From positions 1-52,133 of the forward strand of contig VBEQ01000154.1 in assembly GCA_005881235.1 (NCBI GenBank): a stretch of 52,133 bases of DNA, given 5' to 3'. The notes below the pieces were generated by a model that saw only the letters and a program-made list of their open reading frames with translations, was not told the DNA's origin and did no database searches. Positions 4,154-52,133 of this stretch are shown one piece after another. The translations under genes were made by a program, and so were the position numbers. Each line of letters begins with the position of its first letter. Positions within the stretch are counted from its first letter, which is position 1. This DNA comes from Chloroflexota bacterium. Its GTDB lineage: Bacteria > Chloroflexota > Dormibacteria > CF-121.

Positions 4154-4154
4154 G

Positions 4155-12161: not shown

Positions 12162-12163
12162 GC

Positions 12164-12900: not shown

Positions 12901-12902
12901 TG

Positions 12903-13268: not shown

Positions 13269-13277
13269 ATTGACCTC

Positions 13278-14624
13278 CTAGCCTTTCAAAAGTTGCGCGG
13301 GATCCATGGGTAATCCCTTGATTCGCTTTCCCTTCCCCATCTGTTTCATCATCTGCTGCATCTGCTGAAAACCCTTGAGCAGCCGGTTGACGGCCGCGAT
13401 GTCGGTGCCGGCGCCGCGGGCGATGCGGCGCCGACGACTGCCGTCCATCACCTCCGGTCGTTCCCGCTCCAGGGGTGTCATCGAAAGAATGATCGCCTCC
13501 ATCTCCTTGAGCTGGTCGTCGGTGGGCAGCGCACCGGCGAGGTTCTTGATCTTTCCCGCGCCCGGCAGCATGCCGATGATCCCTTCGAGCGGGCCCATCT
13601 TCTTCACCTGCTTCAGCTGCTCCATGAAGTCGGTGAGGGTGAGCCGGCCGGCGCGCAGCTTCTTCTCCATCTCCCGCGCTTGCGAGGCGTCGACCTGGTC
13701 CTGCGCCTTCTCGATCAGCGTCAGGACATCGCCCATCCCGAGAATGCGCGAGGCCATGCGATCGGGATAAAAGATCTCGAGATCGGTCAGCTTCTCGCCA
13801 ACGCCGACGAATTGGATGGGGCACTGCGTCACCGCCCGCAGCGAGAGCGCCGCCCCACCCCGCGCGTCGCCGTCCATCTTGGTCAGGATCGCGCCACTCA
13901 GTGAGATGGTCCGCTGGAAGCTGACCGTGACGTTGACCGCCTGCTGGCCGGTCATGGCATCGAGCACCAGCAGCCGGTGCTGTGCTGGCACCGCGTCCGT
14001 GATGCGCTTCAACTCGGCGAGCAGGTCCTCATCCACCTGGAGCCGGCCCGCCGTGTCGACGATGACGACGTCGGCGTTCACGCGTCGCGCCTCCGCGAGC
14101 GACTCGCGGGCGATCGCGACGATCGCGACCGGATCGGTGCCACGCGGCGCGTAGGCCGGCGCGTTGATGCTTTTGGCCAGGATCTCGAGCTGCTCCATAG
14201 CGGCCGGGCGGCGGACGTCGGTCGACACCAGCAGCGGCCGGTGCCCTTCACGACGAGTAAAGAGGGCGAGCTTGCCGGCGGTCGTCGTCTTGCCCGAGCC
14301 CTGCAGCCCGGCGAGCACGATCACCGTGGGCGGCGAGGGCGCGTATCCCATGGGCACCCGGTCGCCGAGCAAGCGAACCATTTCTTCGTCGACGATCTTG
14401 ACCAGCTGCTGTCCTGGGTTGAGGCTGTCCATCACCTCGGCGCCAACCGCCCGTGCGCGGATGCTCGCGACGAAGTCCTTGACCACCTTGTAGTTGACGT
14501 CGGCCTCGAGCAGTGCCAGCCGTACCTCCCGCAATCCCGCGTCGACATCGGCCTCACTCAGCTTGCCGCGGCCGGTCAGCGTCTTCAGCGCCTGGTCGAG
14601 ACGCTCGGTCAGGGACTCAAACAC
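13278..14624 (-). CDS. ffh: Signal recognition particle protein Ffh
   Basis: GTG 14624 gives VFESLTERLDQALKTLTGRGKLSE. G-domain motifs LAGLQGSGKTTT, DTAGRL and TKMDGDARGG are present, plus a Met-rich M domain. The start overlaps the ylxM stop (GTGTTTGA). Confidence 0.95.
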   Translation of the reverse strand: MFESLTERLDQALKTLTGRGKLSEADVDAGLREVRLALLEADVNYKVVKDFVASIRARAVGAEVMDSLNPGQQLVKIVDEEMVRLLGDRVPMGYAPSPPTVIVLAGLQGSGKTTTAGKLALFTRREGHRPLLVSTDVRRPAAMEQLEILAKSINAPAYAPRGTDPVAIVAIARESLAEARRVNADVVIVDTAGRLQVDEDLLAELKRITDAVPAQHRLLVLDAMTGQQAVNVTVSFQRTISLSGAILTKMDGDARGGAALSLRAVTQCPIQFVGVGEKLTDLEIFYPDRMASRILGMGDVLTLIEKAQDQVDASQAREMEKKLRAGRLTLTDFMEQLKQVKKMGPLEGIIGMLPGAGKIKNLAGALPTDDQLKEMEAIILSMTPLERERPEVMDGSRRRRIARGAGTDIAAVNRLLKGFQQMQQMMKQMGKGKRIKGLPMDPAQLLKG

Positions 14625-15275: not shown

Positions 15276-16237
15276 CTGGCCTCCTCAATCCGCAATAGCG
15301 CGTCCAGGTACTGCCCGGGATCGAATCGGTTCAGGTCCTCGAGACCCTCGCCGATGCCGACCAACTTCACCGGTACCGAAAGCTCAGCCTCGATACTAAG
15401 CACAACGCCTGCTCGAGCGCTGCCGTCCATTTTCGTGAGGGCGAGCCCAGTCAGGCCGATCGCCTCCTGGAAGACCTTCACCTGCTGGGCGGAGTTCTGC
15501 CCGACGTGCGCATCGAGGACGGCGAGCACCTCCTGCGGGGACGCTGGATCGAGCCGCTGCAGCACCCGCCGGACTTTTCGCAACTCCTCCATCAAGTCGC
15601 TCCGAGTGTGCAGGCGGCCGGCCGTATCGATGATGACGGGACCAGCGCCCCGCGCGCGCGCCGCTTGCACGGCATCGAACGCGACCGCGCCCGGGTCGGC
15701 GCCGGGCTGATGGGCCACCACCTCGACCCCCGCCCGCTCCCCCCACAGCCGCAGCTGGTCGATGGCTGCGGCCCGAAAGGTGTCCCCGGCGGCCAGCAGC
15801 GGGCGGCGGCCTTCGCGCCGGAGCAGGTAGGCCAGCTTTCCGATCGTCGTCGTCTTGCCCGAGCCATTGACGCCGACCACGAGCACGACGGCCGGAGCGC
15901 CGTCGAGGTTGAGCGCGCGCGGACGCCCCTGCAGTTCTCCGACGAGGTCGGCCCTGAGATAGGCAAGCGCGTCAGCCGGCGAGCGCAGGTGCGCCCCAGC
16001 CGCCTGCCGGCGCAGGTCCTGGACGACTCGTTCCGTGGTGGGCACGCCGGCGTCGGCGGCGATCAACGTCGTTTCCAGGTCGTCCCAGAAGGCGGCATCG
16101 AGGGCAGGGCGGCCAAAGACCTCCTTGATGTCGGCGACGTAGCTCTGACGCCCTGCCTCGAGTGTTTTCGAAAAGCGTTTCCAGAATCCCTGGCGCTCGC
16201 CGGGCGCCGTGTCCTCTGGATTAGGCGGAGCGTTCAC
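15272..16237 (-). CDS. ftsY: Signal recognition particle receptor FtsY (NG domain only, short N-terminus)
   Basis: VVGVNGSGKTTTIGKLA, AAGDTFRAAA, DTAGRLH and TKMDGSARAG motifs. Confidence 0.95.
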   Translation of the reverse strand: MNAPPNPEDTAPGERQGFWKRFSKTLEAGRQSYVADIKEVFGRPALDAAFWDDLETTLIAADAGVPTTERVVQDLRRQAAGAHLRSPADALAYLRADLVGELQGRPRALNLDGAPAVVLVVGVNGSGKTTTIGKLAYLLRREGRRPLLAAGDTFRAAAIDQLRLWGERAGVEVVAHQPGADPGAVAFDAVQAARARGAGPVIIDTAGRLHTRSDLMEELRKVRRVLQRLDPASPQEVLAVLDAHVGQNSAQQVKVFQEAIGLTGLALTKMDGSARAGVVLSIEAELSVPVKLVGIGEGLEDLNRFDPGQYLDALLRIEEAR

Positions 16238-19200
16238 CGACCGGGACCAAGGCGTCCTGGTGCAGCCGGACCGACACCATGCGCGAGATCCCGTGCTCGC
16301 CGAGGGTCACGCCGTAGAGCACCTCAGCCTGCGCCATCGTGGAGTGGTTATGGGTGACGATCAGGAACTGCTGGTCCGCCGAAAGCCGCTTCAGCACCCG
16401 GTTGAAGCGAACCACGTTGGCGTCGTCGAGCGCCGCATCGACCTCGTCGAGCACGTAGAACGGGCTCGGGTTGACGGCCTGCAGCGCAAAGAGAAATGCG
16501 AGCGCCGTCAGTGCCCGCTCGCCGCCGGACAGCAGCGTCAGCGGCTGCAGCCGCTTGCCCGGTGTCTGCGCCAGGATCTCCACGCCCTCATCGAGCGGGT
16601 TGCCGTCCTCCTCCTGCGGCTCGACGCGTAACGTCGCGCGGCCGCCCTCGAACAGTTCGGCAAAGAATTCCTGGAAGTTGATGGCCACCGACTGGAAGAC
16701 CGTGCGGAAGCGGGTATCGATTTCGTCCTCGAGCCGTTGCCTGAGCTCGTTCAGTTGCGCCGACGCGGCTTCCAGATCGCCCAGCTGGGCGGCGAGGCTC
16801 TCGCAGCGGTCGCGCACCTGCGCATATTCTTCCGGCGCGAGCAGGTTGACCGCGCCCATTGCATCGAGGCGCCGCTGCAGGCGCGAGACCTCACGCTCCG
16901 TCTTTTGCCAGTCGACCTCCTCGATCGTTACGGTGTCATCTTCGATTTCCTGGCCGCCTTCGCGCAGCGCTTGCGTGCAGCGATCGACTTCGGCCTGCGC
17001 CGCCTCGCGGTCGGCGGCCGCGGCAGTCCAGGCGTCGTCCGCGTGGGCGAGCTCGACTTGCAGCGTGACATTGCGTTGTTCGTCCTCGCGGAGCTGCCCC
17101 TCCAAGGCGGTGAGCGTCTCTCCATCGGGAAGGTGGGCGGACTCGAGGGTACCGAGCTCCGCGCGCAGCCCCTCCGAGGTTTCGGTCCATTGCCGGCGTT
17201 CCTCATTGATGAGGGCCGGCTGCACCGCCAGCTCCGCCTCCGCCGCGCGACGCTGGGCGACCTCATCCCCGTGTGCTCGCAAGACCTGCTGGGCACGCTC
17301 CAGCTGGCGAACCAGGTCATCCGACCGCTGGCGCGCCAGCGCCGCGCGCAGTTCGGTTTCCTGCCGTCGCTCGACCAGCTCCGCGAGGCTGGACGCCGCT
17401 TCCTGGACCCGTGGTTCGAGTGCAGCCAGCTCCTGCTCGGCGACCAGCTCGGCATCGGCGAGCACGCGCTGGCGGTTCAGCGTTTCGGCCTGCAGTTGCT
17501 CGGCCTGGCCGAGCAGTCCGCCGATCCGGATCAGTTGCTGGCGCAGCTGCGCTTCTTGTGGGGCCTCACGCTGGACGGCCTCGGTCGCCGCCGCCAGCGC
17601 CCCCGCGGCCTGCGCTGCGGCCGTCCGCGCCACGTCAACCCGAGTGAGAATCACATGCCGCTTGGCGATGACATCGGCTCGCGCGATGGCGAGGCGCTCT
17701 ACCTCCTCGGCAGCGGTAAGGGCGGCCTGACGTTCGCGGTCGAGCGCCTCTTCCGCGTCCCGGATCCTGGCCTGGACCTCGAGCACCGGGTCCGCCGCTT
17801 TCCCACCGCGGTAGGAGACGGCGGTGATGATCTCCCCGGCCGCGGTGACCGCCCGCAGCTCCCCATGCTTCTCGACGATGCGAGCCGCTTCCGTCCGATC
17901 GGACACGAGCACGACGCCGTGGAGCAGGTGCGCGATGAGCCGCCGCACGTGGTCGGGCGCCTGCACCAGGTCGATGACCGACAGCAGCCCATCCGGCACC
18001 GGCGACGGCGCTCGGTCCTGTGGCGCATAGAGCAGCGTCTCGCGCGCATCCTCAGCGGCGGCCACCGCCGCGGCGGCACTGGCGATCCCATCGCGGCCGG
18101 TTGCCACCCACCCGTGCAGCCACCCCTCGAGTGCGGCCTCGACGGCGGCGCGATGGATGGGTTCGACCTCGATCAGCTCGAGCAGGCGTTCCCAGTTGCG
18201 ATCAACGCGCAGCGGCCCGCGACGCTGGGCGCCGTCCAGCAACGTCCGCAGTCCGACCAGCTCTGCCTCGAGCGCGCGCAGCGCCGCCTCGTGCTCCACG
18301 ATCCCCTTGCGGGCGGCGTCGAGGCAAGCGTCGGCCTCCGCCAGTCGCTGCTCGAGCATGCCCGACGCCTCGCTGGCGGCCTGGAACTCGCCGCTGGCCG
18401 CCTCGGCGGCGCGTGTCCGCCGATCGAACTCGTCGCCCAAGGCGCCGTGGCGCAACGACCACGACTCCAGTTGCGCGCGGGCCTGCTGCTGCTGCTCGGT
18501 CAGAAATTGACGGCGGCCCTCCAACTGGCGAAGCTCGGCCTCGATCGATGCGGTCTCTCGCTGTCCCTCGTGGCGTTGTTGCTGGCGAGCGAGACGGTCC
18601 GCCTCGAGCGTTGCCTGCCGCTCGCGAGCGCCACGCTCGGCATGCGCGGCTGCTTCGAGCGCGCTATTGGCCATCTCCAGATCCACGCGGGCACTCTCGG
18701 CCGCGCGAGCCAGCTCATCGACGACGCGGCTGCCGGCTCGCTCCGAGGCGTTGAGTCGTTGGAGTTCGCTCTGCAACGCTTCGAGCGCCTGAACGGCGGC
18801 GGCGTTGCGCTCCTGCGCGATACGCGCCTGGTGCTGGCTCTCGGCGAGTCGAAGGCGTACGTCCGCAACGGCTTCCTGGTGGCGCCAGCGTGCCTCGCGC
18901 GCGGCGAGTAATGCCGAGCGATGCTCGGCGTAGAGCGGTTCGAACTCGGCGACGGTCTGCGTCGCCGCGGTGCGCTTGTGGTCGGCCGTTTGCTGGCGGG
19001 CCACGGCCTTGCGCAGCTGCACCATCGCCTTACGCCAGCTGTCGCGGGCGAGGCTGCCCTGCAACGCCTTCAGCGCGTCCGCGACTTTCTTGTACTCCTC
19101 GGCCGAGGCCGCCTGCAGCCGCAGCTCCTCAGCGCGGGGACTGAGCTCGTTGAGAATGTCGCGCGCCCGACGCATGTCTCGATCCGCTTCGGCCAGCCGG

Positions 19201-19736
19201 TTGATGGCCTCCTGCCGCTGGTCGCGGAGCCGCCGCACGCCGGCTGCCTCCTCGATCAGCTCGCGGCGGAGCGCCGGCGCCGCCTGGATGACGAAGTCGA
19301 TGTCATTCTGCGCCGTCACGGCATAGCCGTCCTGCCGTAACCCGGTGCTGGCCAGCAGCGCGTCGATGTCCTTCAAGCGCGCGCGTGCCCCGTTGATCAG
19401 GTACTCACTCTCACCCGAGCGGTAGAGGCGGCGGGCCACCTCGATTTCATTGAACTCGACGTTGAGGCGCTGGTCGGCGTTGTCGATCGTCAGCATCACC
19501 TCGGCCATGCCGACGGCCGATTTGCCGGGACCGCCGGCATAGATGACGTCCTCCATCTTCTGACCGCGCAGCCCACGCGCGTTCCGCTCGCCGAGCGCCC
19601 AGCGGATGGCGTCGACGAGATTCGATTTGCCGCTGCCGTTGGGGCCGACGATGGCCGTGATGCCACGGCTGAAGGGCAGCTCGGTGCGGCGCGCAAAGGT
19701 CTTGAACCCCTGCAGCTGCAGCGACTTCAGATACAC
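16221..19736 (-). CDS. smc: Chromosome partition protein SMC
   Basis: 1171 aa. N-terminal Walker [35 protein letters not shown]. Long coiled coils flank a hinge. C-terminal [16 protein letters not shown] and [12 protein letters not shown]. Confidence 0.97.
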
Positions 19737-40959: not shown

Positions 40960-41043
40960 TGCCCGGGAAGGGAGTTGAACCCTTACAAGCTTGCGCTCAC
41001 AGCCCCCTCAAAGCTGCGTGTCTACCAATTCCACCACCCGGGC
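40960..41043 (-). tRNA. tRNA-Leu (anticodon GAG), long variable arm, no encoded CCA
   Basis: The reverse complement is GCCCGGGTGGTGGAATTGGTAGACACGCAGCTTTGAGGGGGCTGTGAGCGCAAGCTTGTAAGGGTTCAACTCCCTTCCCGGGCA. It has a 7-bp acceptor stem (GCCCGGG/CCCGGGC) with discriminator A. The anticodon stem is CAGCT/GGCTG with loop TTGAGGG. The T-arm is AAGGG-TTCAACT-CCCTT, and the variable arm is class II. Confidence 0.9.
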
Positions 41044-41191: not shown

Positions 41192-42058
41192 ATGAATGAC
41201 GAGGGCCATATATCTTTGCCGGCTCTCCAGTCGGACCTGAGCCAGCAGCCGCAGGTCCAAATCCATGGCGGCCGGTCCGCAGCGCGACGCGCGATGGCGG
41301 CCGGAAGAGAGGGGTTAAATATCGTCAACCGCTACCGGATTCTGATCGTCGACGATGATGCCATGGCGCGCGAGATCCTCAAGCGGATTCTCGAGCACGC
41401 GGGCTACGAGGTCATGACCGCCGGCAGTGGCCCCGAAGCTTTGCGCAAACTCCATGAAGGCATCCCCCATCTGGTCGTCGTTGACTTGATGATGCCGGAA
41501 ATGGATGGCTTCGAACTCTGCCGCCGCATCAAGAGCCACCTCGACGTTCCCATCGTCATCCTCAGCGCCGTCGCCGCCATCGAGAGCAAGGTCGAAGGCC
41601 TGCAGATGTACGCCGAGGACTACATCGTCAAGCCGTTCGAAAAGGAAGAGCTGGTCGCGCGGGTGCAGCGTGTGTTGCGCCGTTACGGTGAATCCGCCGG
41701 CGTCGAGCAGCCCGAGGTCGTCATCGACCAGGAGCTCCAGATTAACTTCGTACAGCACTGGGCACGCGTGAAGGGCCAGCAGGTGACCCTCACCCCGACC
41801 GAGTCCAAGCTCCTCTTTCTCCTCGTCCGGAATGCCGGCCGGGTCGTCACCAACGAAACCCTGCTCGCCAAGGCCTGGGCCGGCGACGAGGAAGCCTACG
41901 AGGAAGGGCTGCGCGTTCATATCTCGCGGCTGCGCAGCAAGATCGAGTCGAATCCCAGCAAGCCAACCTACATCCAGACCAAGCGTGGTGTCGGCTACCG
42001 CTTCAGCGCCAAGGTCAACTATCCCGCCGGACAAGAACCGATGGCGCTGGCGGGATGA
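41192..42058 (+). CDS. OmpR/PhoB-family response regulator (REC plus winged-helix)
   Basis: RILIVDDD...VVVDLMMPEMDG...ILSA...YIVKPF, followed by the Trans_reg_C motifs LTPTESKLLFLL...RVHISRLRSKIE...IQTKRGVGYRF. The start may be ATG 41294 instead of 41192. Confidence 0.9.
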   Translation: MNDEGHISLPALQSDLSQQPQVQIHGGRSAARRAMAAGREGLNIVNRYRILIVDDDAMAREILKRILEHAGYEVMTAGSGPEALRKLHEGIPHLVVVDLMMPEMDGFELCRRIKSHLDVPIVILSAVAAIESKVEGLQMYAEDYIVKPFEKEELVARVQRVLRRYGESAGVEQPEVVIDQELQINFVQHWARVKGQQVTLTPTESKLLFLLVRNAGRVVTNETLLAKAWAGDEEAYEEGLRVHISRLRSKIESNPSKPTYIQTKRGVGYRFSAKVNYPAGQEPMALAG

Positions 42059-42158
42059 GCATGCGCACCCTCGCCCTCGGCGTGCTGGTCTTCGTCCTCT
42101 CCTTCCCGCTCTGGCTCCGCTGAGCGACGACGCGGTCCGCGCTTAGACTTCCTCCCCA

Positions 42159-42752
42159 GTGACGCACGCACTGGGTCTCGGGTTCACCGTCTTCACGGTC
42201 ATCTTCCTGCTCGAGCTGCCCGACAAGACGGCGCTGGCCGCCCTGCTGCTGGCGACGCGCCATCGCGCCCTGCCCGTCTTTCTCGGTGCGGCGGCCGCGT
42301 TCGTCATTCAGAGCCTGGTCGCGGTGGTGGCCGGCTCACTCTTGAGCCTGCTTCCCCGCGAACCGATTCGGATTGGGGCAGGGATTCTCTTCCTCGGCAT
42401 GGCGGCGCTCCTGGTTCGCCGCAACCTCCGCAAGGACGAGGCCGACGAGGCGCGGGCGGTCAAGCAGGAGGAGGGTCGACACCGCCAACCGTTCATCACC
42501 GCGTTCACCGTGGTCTTCGTCGCCGAGTGGGGCGACCTCACGCAACTCGCGACGGCGGCGCTCCAGGCCCGCTATCAGCAGCCGGTGGTCGTCTTTGTCG
42601 CCGCTACCCTTGCCCTCTGGGCCGTCTCTGCGATTGCGGTCGCGCTCGGCAATCGTCTCGGTGCCTGGATTCCGGAGCGGCCATTGCAGTTCGCCGCAGC
42701 CGGCGTGATGGTGCTCGTCGCCATCGCGCTCATCACCGGCTTGCTGGGCTAG
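42159..42752 (+). CDS. UPF0016 (GDT1/TMEM165/MneA-type) cation transporter
   Basis: Two copies of the family motif are present: LLELPDKTALAAL and VAEWGDLTQLATA. About 6 TM helices. GTG start. Confidence 0.85.
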   Translation: MTHALGLGFTVFTVIFLLELPDKTALAALLLATRHRALPVFLGAAAAFVIQSLVAVVAGSLLSLLPREPIRIGAGILFLGMAALLVRRNLRKDEADEARAVKQEEGRHRQPFITAFTVVFVAEWGDLTQLATAALQARYQQPVVVFVAATLALWAVSAIAVALGNRLGAWIPERPLQFAAAGVMVLVAIALITGLLG

Positions 42753-42763
42753 GCTTCGACTTT

Positions 42764-42787
42764 CCCTCCCCCGTTTACGGGGGAGGG
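42764..42787. terminator. Strong GC hairpin between convergent genes (10-bp stem, 4-nt loop)
   Basis: CCCTCCCCCG-TTTA-CGGGGGAGGG lies midway between the UPF0016 stop (42752) and the histidine kinase stop (42801). It is probably a bidirectional terminator, although neither side has a U-tract. Confidence 0.55.
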
Positions 42788-42800
42788 CACGGTGGGGGCA

Positions 42801-45065
42801 TCAGGCAGCGGTGCTGAGGTCGATGACTTCGGGAACCGCCCGCTGGGGGATCGTGAAGGTAAACGTGCTGCCCTGGCCGGGCGTGCTCTTCACCCAGATC
42901 CGTCCGCCATGCATCTCCACCAACCGGCGGGAGATCGCCAGGCCCAACCCGGTGCCCTGGTACTTGCCGCTGATCCCGCTCTGACCCTGCTGAAAACTTT
43001 CGAAGATCCGCTCGGCGTCGTCGAACGGCACACCGATGCCGGTATCGCGGACGCTGATCAACAACTCCGCACCCTGGCGCTCGGCCGTGACACGCACGCT
43101 GCCCGTCTCCGTGAACTTGATGGCGTTGCCCAGCAAGTTCAGGAGGACCTGCTTGAGCTTGGGGCCATCCGCAAAGACGCGGCCGACCTCGGCGGAGACG
43201 GTGGCGCTCAGTTCGAGCTTCTTGTTCTTGGCCAGCGAGCTGACACTCTCCACGCACTCTGAAATTAGTGGCTCGACCTCGACCTCGCCGCGGTGGAGCT
43301 GCGCTTTTCCCGCCTCGAGCTTGGAGATATCCAGGAGATCGTTGATCAGAACCAGCAGGTGCTGTCCGTTCTGGCCAATGATGTCCACGTCCTGGCGCTG
43401 GTCGGGGGTCAAGATGCCGCCGTCGCCCTCGAGCAGCAACTGGGAGAAGCCGAGGATCGAGTTGAGCGGTGTGCGCAGCTCGTGGCTCATGTTCGCCAGG
43501 AATTCCGCCTTGTGCTGGTTGGCGCGTTCAAGTTCGGCGTTGACCGCCCCCAGACGCGCCGTCTGCTCGGTGGCGAGGTGGAACAGGTGCGCTTCCTGGA
43601 TGGCCGTCGCGGCGTGCTGCGCGAAGAGCGTGAGGAGCTCGATGGTGTTGCGATCCAGCGGGCGGCGGTGGTAGATGGCGAGCACGCCCAGCAACTGCTC
43701 ACCGACCACCATGGGGAAGCCGGCAAAGGCGTGGATGCCTTCTTCCGACATCCAGGGATTGAGCGAGAGCTGGCGGCGGTTGGCCGGATCGTTGGTAACG
43801 ATCGGCACGCGCAGCTCGGCCACCTGGCCGATCTCCCCCATGCCGCGCTCCACCCGTCCGGGAACCGGCGGCGCGTTGCGCGTCGTGTGATGACCGGCCC
43901 GCCGCCAGAGCGCGCCGTCGCTCTGCTCCAGCAGCCAGATCTGGGCTGCCGCGAAACCGAGGTTGCCGGTCAGCGCGGTGGCCATGATATCGAGCAGCTC
44001 CGGCTCGAAAAGTTTCTGGTTCATCTGGTCGATCGATCGGTTGAGCAGCTCCAGGCGGCGGGCGCGCTTCTCCGTCTCTTCGAACAGGCGCACGTTGCGC
44101 AGCGCTACCGCCAATTGCTGCGCGAGGACCTCCAGCGCCTCCTTCTCCCAGCGCGTGAGACGCCGCTCGGTTTCACGCGTCTGCAGATGCAGCACGCCGG
44201 AGACCTTGCCTTCGAGCAGTACCGGGGTACCGAAGACCCAGGAGTAGCCGGCGTTATTGAGCGCCGGCAGGTCGAAGAGTGGCGACTCGTCCAGCGTCAC
44301 GAAGCCCCGCTCCCGGACCACCCGTCCCACGATCCCGTCGCCCGCCGAGATCGCCGTGCCTTCGATCGCTTCCGGGAGATGAACCGCCGCACGGAGCGTA
44401 AAGACTCCACGGTCTTCGTCGAGCAGAACAATCGCCCCCGAGTCCATTTGCAGAATTTCGAGTCCGCAACGGATGACCGTATAGAGCATGCGCGACACGT
44501 CGAGCTGGCCGACCAGCTCGCCCAGCACGTTGCGCAACTGCTCGGTCTGATCGAGCCGCCGCCGGGTCCCACGAATCTCGGTATTCATCGCCCGCACGGC
44601 GGCGCCCAATCCGGTGATGACGGCCACGGTCGGGATCGCCCGCAGGATCGAGTCCCGCACCGAGATGGCGAGGCCCAGATCGCTGGTCTGGAAGAGAACG
44701 ATGCCGACCGTGAAGAAGAGGCTGGTCCCGATTCCGCCCCAGAGGTCGAAGCGGAAGACGGCTTCGGCGGCGACCAGCGCGTAGAGCAGGTAAGGAAGGC
44801 TGGACGACGGCGTCGCGAACAAGAGGATCCAGCCGCTGACGACCAGGTGATCCAGCACCAGCAGCAGGACGGCCATCGGCCGTGTGAAGCGTGGAACAGA
44901 TTTCTTCCGAATGGCAAGTGTCGCCACCCCGTTGTAGGCCGCGAGCAACCCGGCAAGCAGGATGGTGACCGGCGCCGAGGCCGAATTGAGCCAGAAGAGC
45001 AGGCCGATTGGGATGGCGAGGGCGCCGAAGCGGAGCCGGACGAACTGGCGGTCGAGGGCAGTCAT
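42801..45065 (-). CDS. Membrane sensor histidine kinase (multi-TM N-terminus, two GAF domains, HisKA, HATPase_c)
   Basis: About 6 TM helices in the first 170 aa and GAF-like regions. H-box [22 protein letters not shown]-box [12 protein letters not shown] and G-box [21 protein letters not shown]. Confidence 0.9.
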
Positions 45066-45080
45066 GCCAGCCCTTTAGTC

Positions 45081-47672
45081 CTAAGCGGCCTGGCTGGTTT
45101 GAAGGTTGTTGATCATCTCCAGGAAGCGGTCTTTGCCGAAGTCCCCTTTCTGGATGATCGACTGGATGTTGCCCTGCAGACGCTCCCGATCTTCGCTGCT
45201 GATGTTTTTCGCCGTATAGATAAGGATGGGGATCTGGCTCGCCGCGGGGTCCTCCCGCAGCTTGGAGACGACCTCAAAGCCGTCGACGTCGGGCATCATC
45301 AGGTCGAGGATGATCATGTCGGGCTTCTTCTTGAGGGCCAGTTCCAGGCCCGCCTTGCCGCCATCGGCGACCATGATCTCCATGTTGAACGGCTTCAGCA
45401 TGGCCTTGACCAGCCGGATGTTCTGCGGGTCGTCGTCCACGATCAGAATCGACGACGGCGTCTTCTTGCCCTTCTTACCGTCGGCCAACAGGTCGAACTT
45501 CACCATCATCTGGAGCAACTGCTGCCGGTCGATTGGCTTGGTGAGGAAATCGGCCTGACCGATATCGAACGGCAGTGATTCCTTGTTGACCTTGGAGGTC
45601 AGCACGATCGGGATGTCTTTCGTCTTCGATTCGCGGCGCAGGTCGTAGACGAGGCCACTGCCGCCGTTGGGCGGGAGCTGGGTGTCGATCAGGACGGCGA
45701 GCGGCTGGAGCTGTACCGCTTTGCGCAACGCCTCCTGGGCGCTGGCGGCGATCACCACCTCGTAGCCCGCATGGCTGAGGAAGGGCTCGATGCGCTCCTT
45801 GACCGCCGGGTCATTGTCGGCGACGAGGATCACCGGCGCTTTGGTCCCGGCGCCCACCGGCGGCATGATCTGCACCGGCCGCTCCTGGATGCCGGCTTCC
45901 TGCTTGGCGAACTCGATCAGCTCGCGGATGTGCTCCACCAGCCGCTTGCCGCTTTCGTTGATATGGGCGACAAACTCGCGCCGCTCTTCGGGCGTCGTCT
46001 TGTTCGCCTTCTCGTCGAGCAGGATCTCGGAGAAGCCGATGATCGCGTTGAGCGGTGAGTTGAGGTCGTGGCTCTGGTCGTAGATGACGCGGAACTTGGC
46101 TTCGAAGTCGCGCTTGGCCTGGCTCAGTGCCGGCGCCGCGTCCTTGTTCTTGCCGCTGGCACTCAACTCCACCTTGAGGCCCTCCAGCTGCGCCTGCATG
46201 GCGCGCTTCTCCGCTTCATAGCGCGCCAGCACCTGGCTCGTCGGCGGGCCGCTGCCGGCCGCCTTGCGCGCCTCCTCGAGCTGCACCTTGAGAGAGGCCT
46301 TCTCCCGCTGCCACGCCAGCTCCAGCTCCTTGGTCTCGCCGGCGCGCCGGCTGTGGAGCTCGTTGGTCTCCGACATCATGTCGGAGAGCTGGGCCTGGAT
46401 CCGCTCCAGGTCGACCTTGAGCTGGTTCTTCTCGGCCGTGAGCCGCTGCTCGCGGCCGGTCCATTCCTGGGCTTTGCGGCCGCTCTCGCCGGCGAGGTCG
46501 GCGTGCAGCGCTTTGATCTTTTCGTAGTCCTGCTGGGTCGCGGCCAGGCGGGCCGACGATTCGGCGGCCTGCTTCTTGAGGGTCGCCTTCTCCTCGGCGA
46601 AAGACGCCTCGCGGCTTTGCCAGTCCTTCTCCAGCGCCTTGACTTTGGTCAGGAGCGCCGAGCGCTCGTCACTCAGCCGCTGGAACTCAGCCTCGGCCTT
46701 GTCGAGGTCGGCCCCCTTCCTGCGCGCCTCTTCCAATTGCGTCTGGAGCAGCTTGCGATCGGCTTTGTACTGGCCTTCAGCGGCCTGCGCGCCCTGCTCC
46801 AGCCGGGCGACATCCGCGATCAGCCGCTGCCGCTCGGCCTGCCACTTCTCGCGGGCGGCCTTGAGTGGCTCGACCTCGCCCTGGACGGCCTTCAACTGCT
46901 CCTGCAACTGCGACGTCAGGCTCTGCAGCCGCGCCTTCTCCTGGGTGAGCTCGACCCGCGACTTCTGCCATTCCTGCTCCAGCTGCGCCTGCTTGGCGAC
47001 CGCGGTGTCGCGATCCTTCAGTAAGGTCTCGCGATCGACGGCCCACTGGAGCTGCGCCGTCTGCAGGTTGTTGAGGTCGTCCTCCGCGGTCTTGAGGTCG
47101 CTGCGCAGCTTCTTCTGGTCCGCTTCATACTTCTGCGCGAGCTGGATCCGTTCCTGCTCGAGCTGCCGGAGCTGTCCGCGGCGCTCCTCATCGCGGGTCT
47201 TGGCGCGAGCGACGTCATCCCTGAGGCGAGCCAGTTCAACCTGGGACCGATCGTGGCCCTGCTGAAGATCCAGGTGACCCTGCTTGAGCGACTCGTGCTG
47301 GTCGAGCAGCGCCTGCCGCTCCATCGCGTGCTCACCGTCACGCGCCTTGGCACGGGCGAGCTCATCCTTGACGCGACCGAGGTCCACCTGGGCCCGGTCG
47401 TGGGTCTGCTGCAGACTCGCCTGGCCCTTCTTGAGCGATTCGTGCTGCTCGAGCAGGGCTTGCCGGTCCATGGCCCATTGCAGCTGGGCGTTCTGCAGCT
47501 CGTCGAGCTCCTCTTGTTTGGCCTCGAGCTGCTGCTTGACCAGCGCCAGTTCCCTGCCGGTCTGGGCAAGCTGCGCGCCCATGTCGTCCTGCAGCGTCTG
47601 GAGGTGCGCGACGAATTCCTGGTTCTGCTGCAGGATGTCGGCGAACGACTTCGCCTTGGGGGCCTCGGGCAT
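45081..47672 (-). CDS. Coiled-coil (about 500 aa) plus DHp/HisKA-only module plus two receiver domains; no ATPase (CA) domain
   Basis: Residues 1-520 are heptad-like and rich in Gln/Glu/Leu/Ala/Lys/Arg, with internal repeats. The H-box YDQSHDLNSPLNAIIGFSEILL has His535 at 46070-46068, and the second DHp helix is EFVAHINESGKRLVEHIRELIEFAK. REC-A follows directly (VILVADND...VLIDTQLP...VLTSK...FLTKP), then REC-B (ILIVDDD...IILDLMMPDVDG...IYTAK...QKG). I see no N/G1/F/G2 boxes. Confidence 0.85.
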   Translation of the reverse strand: MPEAPKAKSFADILQQNQEFVAHLQTLQDDMGAQLAQTGRELALVKQQLEAKQEELDELQNAQLQWAMDRQALLEQHESLKKGQASLQQTHDRAQVDLGRVKDELARAKARDGEHAMERQALLDQHESLKQGHLDLQQGHDRSQVELARLRDDVARAKTRDEERRGQLRQLEQERIQLAQKYEADQKKLRSDLKTAEDDLNNLQTAQLQWAVDRETLLKDRDTAVAKQAQLEQEWQKSRVELTQEKARLQSLTSQLQEQLKAVQGEVEPLKAAREKWQAERQRLIADVARLEQGAQAAEGQYKADRKLLQTQLEEARRKGADLDKAEAEFQRLSDERSALLTKVKALEKDWQSREASFAEEKATLKKQAAESSARLAATQQDYEKIKALHADLAGESGRKAQEWTGREQRLTAEKNQLKVDLERIQAQLSDMMSETNELHSRRAGETKELELAWQREKASLKVQLEEARKAAGSGPPTSQVLARYEAEKRAMQAQLEGLKVELSASGKNKDAAPALSQAKRDFEAKFRVIYDQSHDLNSPLNAIIGFSEILLDEKANKTTPEERREFVAHINESGKRLVEHIRELIEFAKQEAGIQERPVQIMPPVGAGTKAPVILVADNDPAVKERIEPFLSHAGYEVVIAASAQEALRKAVQLQPLAVLIDTQLPPNGGSGLVYDLRRESKTKDIPIVLTSKVNKESLPFDIGQADFLTKPIDRQQLLQMMVKFDLLADGKKGKKTPSSILIVDDDPQNIRLVKAMLKPFNMEIMVADGGKAGLELALKKKPDMIILDLMMPDVDGFEVVSKLREDPAASQIPILIYTAKNISSEDRERLQGNIQSIIQKGDFGKDRFLEMINNLQTSQAA
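47175..47468 (-). repeat. Tandem 147-nt (49-aa) coding repeat in the coiled-coil gene
   Basis: Residues 69-117 read DRQALLEQHESLKKGQASLQQTHDRAQVDLGRVKDELARAKARDGEHAM. Residues 118-166 read ERQALLDQHESLKQGHLDLQQGHDRSQVELARLRDDVARAKTRDEERRG. A third, degenerate copy follows AQLQWAVDRETLL at residue 206. Confidence 0.8.
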
Positions 47673-48040
47673 CAGGCCGCCCTCCGTCCTTGCTGCATGT
47701 AACGCTCGACCGCCGACCGCATGGCGTCGAGGTGCGCACTCATGGCGCCCAGCTGGTCGACGCGCTCCTGTTCCAGCTGACTGAGCTCTTCCGCGCGGTC
47801 GGCTTCCCGTTCGATCGACTGGCGGAGCTCGCGCTCCAGCCGGGCAATCTCGGCTTGCGCCATCTCGTAGGCATTTTTCGTGTCGAGAAGGTCCTTCTTG
47901 CGCGCCTCATCCTCATCGATCAGCCCCTGCAGATTCTTGAACAGCTCCTGGTTGAGCTGCAGGATCTCCGGGTAGGAGCGGCTCGCTTTGGACGCCGCCT
48001 CATCGGTTCGGACTGGCTTGCCTGGCTGTTCGCTCATCAC
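47672..48040 (-). CDS. 122-aa coiled-coil protein, paralogous at its N-terminus to the 863-aa protein
   Basis: SRSYPEILQLNQELFKNLQGLIDEDE aligns with KSFADILQQNQEFVAHLQTLQDDM of the next gene. The rest is predicted helical. It is overlap-coupled on both sides (GTGA at 48037-40, TGATG at 47670-74). Confidence 0.55.
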   Translation of the reverse strand: MMSEQPGKPVRTDEAASKASRSYPEILQLNQELFKNLQGLIDEDEARKKDLLDTKNAYEMAQAEIARLERELRQSIEREADRAEELSQLEQERVDQLGAMSAHLDAMRSAVERYMQQGRRAA

Positions 48041-48426
48041 GCCGTCTTCAGCCGCCCCTGCTGCAGGTAGCGGGCGACCTCCCCGGGCAGGCCTTGCGGA
48101 TCAACCGGCTTGGGAATGTAGCCGTCGCAACCAGCGCCCAGGATCTTCTCCCGGTCTCCGGCCATCGCGTGGGCGGTGAGGGCGACGACGACGACGCCCG
48201 CCATCCGGGCATCGGAACGGATCTTGCGGGTGATCGCCAGCCCATCTTCCCCCGGCAGCTGGATGTCCATCAGGACGATGTCGGGCAGCTCGCGCGTCAT
48301 CTCCGCCAGGCACTCGGCGCCGCTCCCCGCTTTGCGCACGGTGAAGCCTTTCTTCTCCAGGAGGAACTGGGCCAACCGGAGGTTGACCGGGTTATCTTCG
48401 ACGATCAATACCTTGCCGGCGGTCAC
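48037..48426 (-). CDS. Single-domain CheY-like response regulator
   Basis: From GTG 48426 (TTG 48408 is an alternative): KVLIVEDNPVNLRLAQFLLEKKGF...IVLMDIQLPGEDG...VVALTAHAMAGD...GCDGYIPKP has all canonical receiver residues. The rest of the 273-aa track ORF is a shadow of the upstream kinase. Confidence 0.85.
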   Translation of the reverse strand: MTAGKVLIVEDNPVNLRLAQFLLEKKGFTVRKAGSGAECLAEMTRELPDIVLMDIQLPGEDGLAITRKIRSDARMAGVVVVALTAHAMAGDREKILGAGCDGYIPKPVDPQGLPGEVARYLQQGRLKTA

Positions 48427-50821
48427 GCCCTGTTCTCCTTCGCCTCTGCACGATGTCCAAAGCCTTGATGGCGCGCAATACGACATCTGGCTCGGAGAGG
48501 CCAGAGGGTATAACGGCGCTCCATGCCGTCGCTGGCACCCTCGGTGAAACTTCACCCAGGGCCAGCAGGGCCGGCTGGCCGGGGAGGCCGCGGAGCCCGA
48601 CCACCCATTCCGGCTCGGCAGGCGCCAGCACGACCACGTCCGGGGCGGCCGCGCGGGCCTTCTCCAGGGCCTCCTGCAGCCCGGGCGCCCGGAAGACCTC
48701 GAAGCCCTCCTCGACCAGGGTGGCGGCCAGCGTCGCCAGCGCCCGCCGGTCGCGATGGACCAGCAGGACGCGGACCCGATCGCGCCGGCGGTTGATCCCC
48801 TGGCCGATTCGGCGCAATTCGTCCTGCATCGTTTTCGTAGCCCACGGCTTGGCGACATACCCGGCGACGCCGAACTGGTCCATCAGCGACTGATTGCGCG
48901 TCACCGAGCAGACCAGCACCGGGACGTCCGCGGTGGCAGCCCGGGCCCGCAACTCCTGGAGGACCTGCCAGCCATCCTTAACCGGAAGGACGGTCTCCAT
49001 CACCAGGAGGTCGGGCAAAATTTCCATCGCCTTGCGCACCGCCTGCTCGCCATCGGAGGCATGGGCGACCCGGAACCCCACGCCCTGGATCTCCGCCGTC
49101 ATCCGCTGGCTGCTCGCGGGATCGTCCTCGATCACCAGCGCCAGCGGGAGTTCCATGGTCTCCAGCGTCGGCGCCGCCTCCTCCACCGGTGACACGGCCG
49201 CCGGCCTGGGCTCGCGGGGAATGGTGAAGGTGAAAATCGAGCCTTTGCCGAATTGGCTCTCCGCCCAGATCCGGCCGCCGTGCATCTCGACGAAGCGGCG
49301 GCAGAGGGCCAGGCCCAGGCCGGTCCCCTGGTAGCGTCGGGTGTAGGAGCCGTCGATCTGCTCGAACTCGCGGAACAGCTTGGGCAAGTCTTCCGGCTTC
49401 ATCCCGATGCCGGTGTCCTCGACGGAGACCGTCAGCTGCTCCGGCGAATCCTTAACCGACACCGTGATCGTCCCGGGCGCCGGTGTGAACTTCACGGCGT
49501 TCGAGAGGAGGTTGTACAGCACCTGCTTGAACTTGCTGCGGTCGGCTTTGATGACCCCGGCGTCGACCGCGCCCACCGTCCGCAGCTGCAGGCCTTGCTG
49601 GCGGGCCATGGGATCGAGGATGGCGGTGATCTCCTGGAGCGCCGCCATCACCGGCATCTCCTCCGGGTGGAGGTCCATTTTGCCCGCCTCGATCTTCGCC
49701 AGGTCGAGGATGTCGTTGATCAGGCCGAGCAGGTGCTGCCCGCTGCTGTGGATGTTGCGCAGGAACTCGGTGCGCTCGCCTGCCGTCAGGTTCATGGTCA
49801 GGTCCAGCAGGATCTCGCTGAAACCCATGATGGCGTTGAGTGGCGTGCGCAGCTCGTGCGACATGTTCGCGAGGAATTCCGACTTGTACCGGCTGGACTG
49901 TTCGAGCTGGCGGTTGACCTGCAGGATCTCCTCGTCCGCGCGCCGCAGCGCCGCGTGCTGGCGCATCAAGTAGCGGTTCGAATCCTTCAGCCGCGCGACC
50001 AGGCTCTGCCGCTCCGCTCGCAGCCGCTGCTTCTCCAGGTTGCGTTCCAGGAGCTCCCGGAGCCGATGCAGGTCGATCGGTTTGGCGATGTAGTCGTCGG
50101 CGCCGCCACGCAGCGCCTCCGCCGCGACCTGCTCCGAGCCGTAGGCGGTCATCATCACGACCACGGATTCGGGAAAATCGCGGAGCATCTGGGGTAGGAG
50201 GCTCAAGCCGCTCTCCTCCGGCATCTGCACGTCGAGGAAGATCAGGGCCGGGCGGCGACCGTCGAGTTGCCGGCGGGCCTGGGTCGCGTTGGGGGCCGTC
50301 ACGACGTCGAAGCCCTGTCTTTGGACCGCCTTGGTGAGGAACGCCCGGTTGTCAGGATCGTCATCGATGGCGAGCAAGACCGGCCGTTCCTCCTGTTCCG
50401 GCTCCGCTCCAAGCAGCCCGCGCACCGCCTGGACCAGGTCCTGGTCTGAGCCCAGCTCGCGGCCGGAGCCCGTCGACAGCGGCCCCAGGTCGGTCAGGAA
50501 GCGGTCCGCACCCGCGGCCAGGGCCCGCTTGCCTTCGTCGGCATCCACGTGCACTCCGGCCATGAGCAGCACCGGGATGTTCGTCGTCGCCGGGTTGCTC
50601 TTCAGGATCTCGCAGACGCGAAGTCCGTCGATGCGGCGGAGCAGAAGGTTGAGGATGATGGCGTCCGGCACGTCCTCACGGGCCCGGTCCAGCGCCTCGA
50701 GCCCGTCCTGCGCCGAGAGGACGTCGAACCCCTCGCGCTGAAGTCGCCCGACGAGCGCCTGCAAGCGCTCGGGATCGTCGTCGGCGACGAGAATCCGCCG
50801 GGTGCTGCTCAGCTCGCTCAT
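48392..50821 (-). CDS. Hybrid histidine kinase: pseudo-REC, REC, HisKA, HATPase_c, REC(D->E), degenerate REC
   Basis: REC1 has ILNLLL (N58 at the phospho-acceptor position). REC2 has FLDVQMP (D197), MMTAYG and IAKP. H-box [22 protein letters not shown] (H322). N-box NLLSNAVKFT and G-box [24 protein letters not shown]3 has LLVMETVLPVKDG (E609). REC4-like has VVVLAPAEP (A733). Arg-rich tail RRRRTGRDRRQGIDRRR. Confidence 0.9.
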   Translation of the reverse strand: MSELSSTRRILVADDDPERLQALVGRLQREGFDVLSAQDGLEALDRAREDVPDAIILNLLLRRIDGLRVCEILKSNPATTNIPVLLMAGVHVDADEGKRALAAGADRFLTDLGPLSTGSGRELGSDQDLVQAVRGLLGAEPEQEERPVLLAIDDDPDNRAFLTKAVQRQGFDVVTAPNATQARRQLDGRRPALIFLDVQMPEESGLSLLPQMLRDFPESVVVMMTAYGSEQVAAEALRGGADDYIAKPIDLHRLRELLERNLEKQRLRAERQSLVARLKDSNRYLMRQHAALRRADEEILQVNRQLEQSSRYKSEFLANMSHELRTPLNAIMGFSEILLDLTMNLTAGERTEFLRNIHSSGQHLLGLINDILDLAKIEAGKMDLHPEEMPVMAALQEITAILDPMARQQGLQLRTVGAVDAGVIKADRSKFKQVLYNLLSNAVKFTPAPGTITVSVKDSPEQLTVSVEDTGIGMKPEDLPKLFREFEQIDGSYTRRYQGTGLGLALCRRFVEMHGGRIWAESQFGKGSIFTFTIPREPRPAAVSPVEEAAPTLETMELPLALVIEDDPASSQRMTAEIQGVGFRVAHASDGEQAVRKAMEILPDLLVMETVLPVKDGWQVLQELRARAATADVPVLVCSVTRNQSLMDQFGVAGYVAKPWATKTMQDELRRIGQGINRRRDRVRVLLVHRDRRALATLAATLVEEGFEVFRAPGLQEALEKARAAAPDVVVLAPAEPEWVVGLRGLPGQPALLALGEVSPRVPATAWSAVIPSGLSEPDVVLRAIKALDIVQRRRRTGRDRRQGIDRRR

Positions 50822-52095
50822 CCGGCCCTCCGAAGGGGGGCGCGCCCGGCCGGTTCGTGGAGGGCGACCAGCGGCCGCCGCGGGATCAGGAAGCGGAAGG
50901 CACTGCCTCGACCGGGGACACTCTCCACCCAGATCTGGCCACCCTGCAGTTCCACCAGCCGCTTGGAGAGCGCCAGGCCGAGCCCGATGCCCTCGTACCC
51001 GCGCGAGGTGGAGCCGTCGACCTGGCGAAATTCCTCGAAGAGGCGTGGCTGATCTTCCGGTTTGATGCCGATACCCGTGTCCCGGACCTCGACCACCGTT
51101 CCGGTGGGGCTCTCTATCGCGCTGATCGTGACGCTGCCATGGTGCGAGGTGAATTTCACCGCGTTGTTGACCAGGTTGTGGACGATGTGGCGGAGGCTTC
51201 GCGCATCGAAGACCACCTGCAGGGTGCGGTCCACCTGCGAAGTGACCGTCAGCTCCTTCTGACTCGCCGCCGCCGCGTTCTCCGACAGCGCGGCGTCCAC
51301 GGCGTCGGCCACCAGGCAGGGCGCCGGATGGAGCTCGAGCCGGCCGGCCTGGATATGGGTCAGGTCGAGGATGTCATTGATCAGGGTGAGAAGCTGGCGG
51401 CCACTGTTGTGGATCGTCTCGGCAAATTCGGCGCGTTCCGCCTCCGACAGCTCCGGGGTCGTCTGGATGATCTCCGAGAAGCCGATGATCGCGTTCAGCG
51501 GTGTGCGCAGCTCGTGCGACATGTTGGTGAGGAACTCCGACTTCATCCGGTCGGCTTCCTGCAACTCGAGGTTGGCGCGCTGCAACATCTCGATGGTCTG
51601 CCGCTCCCGCTGGAATCGCCGCGCATTGTCGAGGGCAACCGCGGCCTGGTTGGCGAGGATCTGCAGGACCTGCATCAGGGTCGGATCGAAGGCGCGGACG
51701 TCGTGGAAGTAGACCGATACCGTGCCGACGAACTCCCGCTCGAGGAACATCGGCAGACCCAGCGCCGCCCGCCAGCCGTACTGCTGGGCCAGTGGATCGA
51801 GCGGGAATCGGCCGTCGAGTTGAATGTCCTCGGAGAAGACTGGACGCTGCTCGATGACGACCTGGGTGATGAGACCCGGCGCGAGGCGAGCCAGCTTGTC
51901 TTGGGGGACGCGCGGCTGCACGCCGTCCCTCACCTCAACGGCCTGTTCGGCGGGGTTGCCGGACTGGGTCAGGGTGATGAGGCAGGAGGCGGCGCCCGAG
52001 ACGCCGATCAACGCCTGGGCGACGCCTTGCAGCAGCGCGGTCGGCCCGACCGTGGTCGCGGTCAGCGCCTGGGACACCTGGCGGAGCATCTCCAT
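50818..52095 (-). CDS. Cytoplasmic GAF-domain histidine kinase (possibly 5'-truncated by the window edge)
   Basis: GAF-like N-terminal half. H-box [22 protein letters not shown]-box NLVNNAVKFT and G-box GIGLGLALSKRLVELQGGQIW. The frame remains open upstream of ATG 52095 to the end of the window (..QTRQQALRLDAS), so the true start may lie outside. ATGA overlap with the next gene. Confidence 0.88.
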   Translation of the reverse strand: MEMLRQVSQALTATTVGPTALLQGVAQALIGVSGAASCLITLTQSGNPAEQAVEVRDGVQPRVPQDKLARLAPGLITQVVIEQRPVFSEDIQLDGRFPLDPLAQQYGWRAALGLPMFLEREFVGTVSVYFHDVRAFDPTLMQVLQILANQAAVALDNARRFQRERQTIEMLQRANLELQEADRMKSEFLTNMSHELRTPLNAIIGFSEIIQTTPELSEAERAEFAETIHNSGRQLLTLINDILDLTHIQAGRLELHPAPCLVADAVDAALSENAAAASQKELTVTSQVDRTLQVVFDARSLRHIVHNLVNNAVKFTSHHGSVTISAIESPTGTVVEVRDTGIGIKPEDQPRLFEEFRQVDGSTSRGYEGIGLGLALSKRLVELQGGQIWVESVPGRGSAFRFLIPRRPLVALHEPAGRAPLRRAG

Positions 52096-52133
52096 CGAGG
52101 CGTCCAGCCGCAGGGCTTGCTGGCGGGTCTGCT

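Follow-up and report, generated by a model that had tools for sequence, protein, structure and literature searches.

The last part of a 52,133-nucleotide (nt) stretch of DNA (the window; positions 1 to 52,133 of contig VBEQ01000154.1, assembly GCA_005881235.1, Chloroflexota bacterium) is occupied by six minus-strand genes, here called G1 to G6, for two-component signalling proteins and coiled-coil proteins. From its layout the block at 42801-52133 appears to be one six-gene, tightly packed signalling operon. The operon may encode a multi-kinase His-Asp phosphorelay with a logic like that of RedCDEF and Spo0 in Candidatus Dormibacterota, a reading to which a probability of about 50 % is given. 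The following features make up the operon:

50818-52133, minus strand: G1, 3' part only, a sensor histidine kinase cut at the window edge, with GAF-2, HisKA (His codon 51514-51516) and HATPase_c (Pfam).
48392-50821, minus strand: G2, 809 amino acids (aa), a soluble, apparently receiver-gated kinase with a pseudo-receiver (Asn58), a receiver (Asp197), HisKA (His322), HATPase_c, a second pseudo-receiver (Glu609) and a degenerate receiver remnant.
48037-48426, minus strand: G3, 129 aa, a CheY-like response regulator made of a single receiver domain, with the canonical active-site residues E-D / D54 / T / K (Pfam, active-site alignment).
47672-48040, minus strand: G4, 121 or 122 aa, an all-helical coiled-coil protein with nothing above the Pfam threshold.
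45081-47672, minus strand: G5, 863 aa, with an N-terminal head, a predicted helical rod of about 500 aa, a HisKA/DHp domain without ATPase domain (about 45894-46136) and two receivers, REC1 and REC2.
42801-45065, minus strand: G6, 754 aa, a polytopic membrane kinase with about 5-6 transmembrane segments (hydropathy scan), two GAF domains, HisKA (His528, 43482-43484) and HATPase_c (Pfam).

A first-pass annotation of the window had described six minus-strand genes joined by ATGA, a 35-nt overlap, GTGA, TGATG and a 15-nt gap into a single translationally coupled unit, and this description was borne out. All six open reading frames (ORFs) were recovered in a mechanical ORF list, at 50818-52095+, 48392-50821, 48037-48858 (longest form), 47672-48040, 45081-47672 and 42801-45065. 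The frame of G1 is open to base 52133 and aligns within the longer gene of L008, a relative 95 % identical that was used as reference for full-length G1. Reading of the minus strand at each start gave ATGA at the G1/G2 junction (50818-50821), the 35-nt overlap between G2 and G3 (48392-48426), GTGATG between G3 and G4 (48037-48040; GTGA, or TGATG with the ATG at 48037 as start), TGATG preceded by GGAGGG between G4 and G5 (47670-47674), and a 15-nt spacer between G5 and G6 (45066-45080). The start of G3, GTG 48426, lies 35 nt within G2, with the Shine-Dalgarno sequence AAGGAG nine bases ahead of it, and G4 starts either with GTG 48040 or with ATG 48037; metagenome gene callers picked the 121-aa form. 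The Shine-Dalgarno sequences of downstream genes are embedded in the genes before them. A terminator scan found no terminator-like site on the operon strand within the block; its seven pattern matches were all on the opposite strand, in a number as expected from shuffles. Nothing was found in a sigma-70 promoter scan, and an Rfam search of the window gave no matches. The gene before G1 in L008 is a divergent 156-aa ORF and the gene after G6 in the window is convergent. The divergent gene indicates that G1 is the first gene and that the operon consists of exactly six genes, and together with the conserved overlaps these two neighbours support a single unit. A small ORF upstream of G1 in L008 (4968-5369, plus strand) was considered as a seventh operon gene and rejected, since the 156-aa ORF on the opposite strand reads like a real protein. 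The region of L008 ahead of G1, outside the window (4357-5363), holds this divergent ORF, which has no Pfam match, and a gene on the operon strand for a low-molecular-weight phosphotyrosine phosphatase. The phosphatase gene is found upstream in most, but not all, relatives, at varying distance.

The six-gene block was also found to be conserved in related genomes, with the same order and junctions in about 85 loci from metagenome-assembled genomes (MAGs) of Candidatus Dormibacterota and from soil metagenomes. A scan of one genome per GTDB species gave 39 related loci, and all six genes were present in the same order wherever the contig was long enough. A metagenome scan with the family alignment gave 80 loci; the operon was present in all 52 loci with a G5 at least 63 % identical and absent from about 28 at 51 % or less. 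The junction spacings of -4, -35, -4, -1/+2 and +15 recur, far beyond chance, in about 33 of the GTDB species-level loci and in the 52 metagenome loci, and are kept down to 59-64 % protein identity. This strict conservation of the overlaps, together with that of the active-site residues described below, is a stronger argument than gene order. Exact copies of G5 and G6 occur on soil metagenome contigs, the exact G6 protein on 19 of them. The nearest relatives with a name are MAGs that carry the label Candidatus Dormibacteraeota or, where the record is older, Chloroflexi. Four operon contigs at 64-92 % identity (L009, L038, L040 and L041) come from MAGs that carry the names Binatus, Eisenbacteria, Gemmatimonadaceae or Acidoferrum, and are probably binning contaminants. 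No NCBIfam family scored above its cutoff for any of the six proteins, with no match at all for G4, and a literature search on Dormibacterota two-component systems and on DHp domains lacking the catalytic (CA) domain found nothing relevant. The earlier impression that the arrangement is not a described system was upheld, in that no characterised orthologue was found in NCBIfam, PDB or the literature.

Pfam analysis of the six products showed three kinases with HisKA and HATPase_c, one single-domain receiver and one HisKA protein with two receivers and without HATPase_c, so that the motif reading of the first-pass annotation, including its three complete kinases and its one DHp-only module, was essentially right. 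In G1, G2 and G6 the HisKA matches (E = 1e-21 to 3e-22) and HATPase_c matches (E = 1e-30 to 7e-34, profile positions 2-110/111) are complete, and the H-boxes all read SHELRTPL. G6 is indeed a multi-membrane-span kinase with two GAF domains. G1, by contrast, had been taken for a cytoplasmic GAF kinase, which does not hold: full-length G1 in relatives is about 695-710 aa long and has one or two N-terminal hydrophobic (predicted transmembrane) segments and two GAF domains ahead of the kinase core. Across 31 loci the additional 285 aa at the N-terminus share 72-96 % identity, and G1 appears to be a membrane-anchored GAF-GAF kinase, an architectural sibling of G6. As present in the window, G1 gave no exact match on look-up because the gene is cut by the window edge. 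A Che signalling cluster was considered and rejected: CheA (Hpt/P2/CheW-like), CheW, MCP, CheB and CheR domains are absent from the six products and two neighbours, and the 'CheY' is a single-domain receiver only. According to Pfam the six genes also lack DNA-binding, GGDEF/EAL/HD-GYP and PP2C domains, as had been noted, but an OmpR-family regulator gene lies 743 bp past the last kinase gene (see below).

The receivers were audited by active-site alignment to E. coli CheY and 33-36 orthologues. Seven receiver or receiver-like stretches had been counted before; all seven are there, but the acceptor Asp is kept in only four of them, namely the second receiver of G2 (D197), G3 (D54) and the two receivers of G5 (D663 and D790). 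The other positions in G2 are Asn58 in its first and Glu609 in its third receiver, without exception among 33 sequences. G2 as a whole showed three significant Pfam receivers and the HisKA-HATPase_c core, plus a fourth receiver-like stretch with a marginal match (E = 0.011); N58, D197, H322 and E609 were invariant in all 33 sequences. The four receivers earlier ascribed to G2 are one canonical receiver, N-terminal to the core, two Asn/Glu pseudo-receivers and one remnant. A classical hybrid kinase with an intramolecular His-to-Asp relay was rejected for G2, since its C-terminal REC3 has Glu609 at the acceptor position in 33/33 sequences and REC4 is a remnant; its only phosphorylatable receiver (Asp197) precedes the kinase core. 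D54 of G3 was found in 36/36 sequences, and the length of G3 is 129 aa in all orthologues and in metagenome gene calls.

In G5, a HisKA domain (Pfam, E = 2e-13) is followed by two receivers. The key codons are those of His535 (46068-46070), Asp663 of REC1 (45684-45686) and Asp790 of REC2 (45303-45305), and these three residues were present in 34/34 sequences. G5 was considered as a histidine kinase and rejected as such, since Pfam found no HATPase_c match after the DHp domain, where the stretch from DHp helix 2 to receiver 1 measures only about 20 residues. Without an ATPase domain, G5 would not be capable of autophosphorylation. The DHp domains of G1, G2, G5 and G6 align without gaps and do not differ in length or loop. 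In G1, G2 and G5 the part of helix 1 below the His is almost the same (PLNAI[IM]GFSEI), which hints at common receiver partners; overall, the DHp of G5 shares 28-38 % identity with those of the three kinases. G5 showed no Spo0B or Hpt family match in Pfam, and a PDB sequence search with its C-terminal module returned generic receiver domains only. In the secondary structure of an AlphaFold2 (AF2) model, G5 is helical over residues 10-505 in four long helices; a helical hairpin comes next, where the DHp domain lies, and then two alpha/beta domains.

An HMMER search of 1.84 billion cluster representatives yielded about 14 clusters (50 % identity) of proteins in which 200-600 aa of helical, non-Pfam sequence at the N-terminus precede a HisKA-like DHp and two receivers; past these, the match list consisted of ordinary hybrid kinases. 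The G1 box of the ATPase domain, D-x-G-x-G, is absent from the 13 clearest clusters of this G5 family and the pattern is present in one borderline member, P0133. Family members have in common a head at the N-terminus (P-S-F-x-[ED]-[IL]-L-x-Q-x-Q), at least one Q-x-x-W-A-x-[DE]-R motif, an H-box of the form H-x-[LI]-x-[ST]-x-L-N-[AT]-[IV]-x-G-F and a linker K-P-I-D-R-Q-Q-L. The His is invariant in all clusters, down to about 35 % identity. The H+1 residue drifts (E, D, T, A, H, R, L); in HisKA domains this residue is tied to autokinase chemistry. The H+4 residue is always Ser or Thr, and the D/E-x-x-T/N motif of HisKA is crucial for phosphatase activity (PMC12963549). This pattern fits a DHp domain in which autokinase chemistry is no longer needed and the His is still used. 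Named members are MAGs labelled Dormibacteraeota or 'Chloroflexi', plus one with a Limnocylindrales label. Judged from these matches, the G5 family, with its coiled coil, its DHp with invariant His and without ATPase domain and its two receivers, is a small one, confined to MAGs of or near Dormibacterota. It was argued from the invariant His and Asp residues that the family signals by phosphotransfer and does not act as a passive scaffold.

The N-terminal part of G5 has a small counterpart in G4. BLASTP of G4 against the G5 N-terminus gave a match that covers the head motif and the last part of the repeats; G4 carries the head motif as S-[YF]-x-[ED]-I-L-Q-x-N-Q-E plus one repeat end, and for the repeat-end segment profile-profile comparison (hhalign) gave a probability of 99 % with E = 2e-18. 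G4 is 111-170 aa long in relatives. In the most divergent clade (L039) it measures 170 aa and also carries the W motif, and in the L136 lineage, with a G5 62 % identical, it is absent and G3 abuts G5. G4 appears from these matches to be a truncated paralog of the G5 N-terminus, an accessory copy of the stalk head. The C-termini of G3 and G4 (window 48040-48070 and 47672-47700) share R-Y-[LM]-Q-Q-G-R, which reads YLHQGR and FLQQGR in the most divergent clade. This end was considered as a docking peptide and set aside, as in G4 its codons coincide in part with GGAGGG, the Shine-Dalgarno sequence of G5; the overlap may explain the shared motif, at least for G4, and the motif may also be a functional C-terminal tag. 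Of residues 1-520 of G5, 69 % are A, L, Q, E, K or R, and there are four internal prolines only (269, 476, 477 and 514). Within this region lies the following repeat:

47199-47471, minus strand: tandem repeat in the G5 coiled coil, unit 147 bp (49 aa, seven heptads), 1.9 copies, 78 % matches (Tandem Repeats Finder).

Orthologues of G5 fall into length classes of 814, 822, 825, 840, 853 and 863 aa, indicating that the length of the stalk is polymorphic between species, and the copy number of the 147-bp repeat would account for the 863-aa versus the 814-aa form. In one contig of the same species (L003, ENA contig CRIT18-1 scaffold_6155, 3881-5812) the G5 region was called as two minus-strand ORFs, with a G5 match over 75 % of the length, probably an assembly or frameshift problem in repetitive coiled-coil DNA.

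Downstream of G6 the window contains three further features of interest:

42764-42787, no strand assigned: hairpin CCCTCCCCCG-nnnn-CGGGGGAGGG with a G+C-rich 10-bp stem, in the 48-nt spacer between the convergent G6 and GDT1 genes.
42159-42752, plus strand: gene for a GDT1/UPF0016-family membrane protein, outside the operon (precomputed Pfam PF01169), in a conserved position.
41192-42058, plus strand: gene for an orphan OmpR/PhoB-family response regulator of 288 aa (precomputed Pfam PF00072 and PF00486), convergent to the operon, 743 bp past G6.

The OmpR-type regulator has a canonical receiver, with the DD/D/S/K residues read from its sequence, and a 48-aa N-terminal extension ahead of this receiver. 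In full-length NCBIfam alignments it scored 206 bits with RpaB and 197 bits with MtrA, and it also matched PhoB; as all scores were below the equivalog cutoffs, it was assigned to the OmpR/PhoB family and to no named orthologue. It is the most conserved protein of the neighbourhood, 83-100 % identical in relatives versus 59-96 % for the kinases, and its gene was found beside the operon in all relatives checked that have the full operon and a contig reaching that far. With the GDT1-family (Mn/Ca transporter-like) gene it forms a two-gene unit of its own at 41192-42752 on the plus strand. In the L136 lineage GDT1 and G6 are separated by an inserted Peptidase_M3 gene (11636-13570) and the G5-G6 spacer is about 230 nt, changes which indicate that the operon probably tolerates some remodelling. 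The hairpin had been thought to close the operon. A hairpin is indeed there, and the 61-nt stretch that contains it folds at -24.4 kcal/mol (z = -2.6), but it has no U-tract on either strand and was not called by the terminator scan. Only a minority of the orthologous loci share it, and at many of them G6 runs up to the convergent gene or almost overlaps with it. A tRNA-Leu (GAG) gene at 40960-41043 (minus strand), just upstream of the OmpR-type gene, was the sole RNA gene found in the window. A tblastn search with kinase core, receiver and GAF domains found no other such gene in the remaining 41 kb (1-41000). The rest of the window encodes TopA, DprA, Ffh, SMC (full-length, 1171 aa, at 16221-19736 on the minus strand), RecG and FakA and is of uniform composition, which points to core housekeeping chromosome and not to a mobile island.

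The block has the components of a multi-input phosphorelay, as had been suggested: three kinases, four receivers with the acceptor Asp and one DHp domain with an invariant His and without ATPase domain. By domain content, the input parts of the putative phosphorelay are the two membrane-anchored GAF-GAF HisKA kinases G1 and G6 and the soluble kinase G2. It is proposed that G1 and G6 would autophosphorylate on GAF or membrane cues, and that phosphate would be passed to G3, to the gating receiver of G2 and to the two receivers of G5, with the kinase activity of G2 gated by phosphorylation of its own upstream receiver. G5 might take phosphate on His535 from a receiver and then hand it on or dephosphorylate phosphorylated G3. 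It could thus serve as a dimeric phosphotransfer or phosphatase node, either in an Asp-His-Asp path or as a sink for G3 phosphate, mounted on a coiled-coil stalk about 500 residues long that has its conserved head in common with G4. The output would then be encoded outside the operon, with G3 acting via protein-protein contacts and the adjacent OmpR-type regulator as candidates. The closest parallel for this logic is RedCDEF of Myxococcus xanthus, a co-transcribed system in which a dual-receiver protein passes phosphate to a non-autophosphorylating histidine kinase-like protein, which dephosphorylates a single-domain regulator (PMC2755868). The single-domain receiver RedF is the output of RedCDEF, and the logic was shown experimentally for RedD, RedE and RedF (PMC2755868). 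Both are two-component operons of transmitter and receiver domains only (PMC2755868), and both have a membrane kinase, a dual receiver, a non-autophosphorylating His protein and a single-domain regulator, roles that are assigned here by domain content alone. However, RedCDEF has one kinase instead of three. Its dual receiver and non-autophosphorylating DHp are separate proteins, whereas G5 combines both in one chain, and the HATPase_c domain that RedE has retained is missing from G5. Furthermore, G5 has a coiled coil of about 500 aa and the small paralog G4, and the organisms belong to unrelated phyla.

Several points weigh against this proposal. The phylum is uncultured and the relay is a prediction from sequence. 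The flanking 20 kb is also largely syntenic among relatives, so that the adjacency of the OmpR-type gene and part of the conservation of the block may reflect shared descent and not selection. In the relative L055, with a G5 52 % identical, an isochorismatase gene comes after the G5-G6 pair in place of GDT1 and the OmpR-type gene; on these two grounds, the adjacency was downgraded as evidence of a partnership. Distant G5 paralogs stand alone in unrelated contexts with no kinase nearby, and the family therefore does not need this operon. One such member, P0127, is found in GCA_030157205.1, the same assembly as a complete operon, which indicates paralogs within genomes, binning permitting. The H+4 residue of G5 is Ser where Thr or Asn is canonical. 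Finally, the AF2 model of full-length G5 is of low confidence (predicted local distance difference test score, pLDDT, 59.6; predicted template modelling score, pTM, 0.23), and only its secondary structure was used.

The main alternative, compatible with the RedCDEF-like reading, is a linear relay with transcriptional output, in which G1, G2 and G6 would phosphorylate G3 (as Spo0F) and phosphate would travel over His535 of G5 (as Spo0B or ChpT) to the OmpR-type regulator (as Spo0A or CtrA), possibly controlling its own operon with the GDT1 transporter; this chain is regarded as tentative and somewhat unlikely. In the Spo0F-Spo0B-Spo0A system of Bacillus and with ChpT of Caulobacter, several kinases feed a single-domain receiver, and a dimeric four-helix-bundle His protein shuttles phosphate to a DNA-binding regulator. 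The parts at hand fill all four roles, with kinases, a single-domain receiver, a DHp without autophosphorylation and the neighbouring OmpR-type protein as candidate regulator. The latter has a canonical receiver and, within 41 kb, no dedicated kinase gene, and its gene stays by the operon down to 62-64 % G5 identity, even past the inserted peptidase gene. It lies, however, outside the operon on the other strand in a separate transcription unit, its adjacency is weak evidence in a neighbourhood that is syntenic as a whole, and L055 has G5-G6 without it. The DHp of G5 is a bona fide HisKA domain and not a member of the Spo0B or ChpT families, has no ATPase-like remnant, and is fused to a long coiled coil and to two receivers, which a simple Spo0B-like shuttle does not need. 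It is very unlikely, in turn, that G5 acts by cross-regulation, its DHp heterodimerising with that of G1, G2 or G6 to block or redirect autophosphorylation and its receivers serving as phosphate sinks. RetS of Pseudomonas aeruginosa has a transmitter followed by two tandem receivers, as in the C-terminal half of G5, which resembles RetS minus its ATPase domain. RetS disrupts the DHp dimerisation interface of GacS, and several sensor kinases act on one another there and not in linear pairs (PMC8498467). The common length and loop of the four DHp domains and their near-identical helix-1 residues would suit such contacts, but the overall identity of 28-38 % and the stand-alone paralogs without a nearby kinase do not, and a heterodimer would leave the invariant His unexplained. 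RetS also has an ATPase domain and a periplasmic sensor, and the Pseudomonas kinases are not in one operon and have GacA with Rsm small RNAs as output.

The first-pass annotation had proposed instead that the output is structural and not transcriptional, with G4 and G5 forming a coiled-coil scaffold or filament, polar or cytoskeletal, whose assembly or recruitment is set by receiver phosphorylation without a transcription factor. This claim is unsupported, as it rested only on the missing output domain in the six genes, whereas the orphan OmpR-type DNA-binding regulator is a conserved neighbour; a purely structural output is considered quite improbable. Helical structure is indeed predicted for some 500 residues of G5 and almost the whole of G4, which are rich in A/L/Q/E/K/R and poor in prolines, the head and Q-x-x-W-A-x-[DE]-R motifs suggest specific contacts, and the coiled coil varies in length by a heptad-preserving unit of 49 aa. 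G4, however, is missing in one lineage where the operon is otherwise retained. FrzS and AglZ of Myxococcus, which had been named as analogues, begin with a receiver, continue with coiled coil and lack a DHp. The analogy fails on domain order and content, since G5 is built as coiled coil, DHp and two receivers and G4 has no receiver, and RedCDEF appears to be the better precedent for an output-less two-component operon. PsmA of Streptomyces is a histidine kinase-like protein that tunes, with DivIVA, a coiled-coil polar organelle (PMC12963549). As two-component-like proteins tied to coiled-coil or polar assemblies, PsmA and FrzS/AglZ would be the models for a structural output. PsmA has lost the His of its H-box and kept a degenerate ATPase domain (PMC12963549), the reverse of G5, where the ATPase domain is absent and the His and both Asp residues are invariant, pointing to phosphoryl chemistry. 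An unlikely but more far-reaching view is that the G5 family is an undescribed class of kinase-less, stalk-mounted phosphotransfer proteins coupling the three-kinase network to a supramolecular coiled-coil assembly, with G4 as a cap or decoy for the head and an output of a spatial or mechanical kind, either in addition to a transcriptional one or in its place.

Output-less two-component operons, multikinase networks and non-autophosphorylating His proteins are all already known kinds, and no principle of two-component signalling is overturned. What is new here is the fusion of a long coiled coil, an ATPase-less HisKA domain and two receivers, together with a truncated paralog and a fixed six-gene arrangement in an uncultured phylum. 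The Dormibacterota are abundant soil bacteria without a cultured member, and the operon represents strongly conserved signalling hardware of one clade. It is a compact natural multikinase network, in which parts that are usually separate are fused on a coiled coil of variable length. If the DHp domain of G5 does shuttle or remove phosphate, the protein would be a new architectural class among the few bacterial His-phosphotransfer proteins. In that case regulation in an uncultured phylum would also become accessible, since every part is either soluble or can be truncated, and is testable in vitro.

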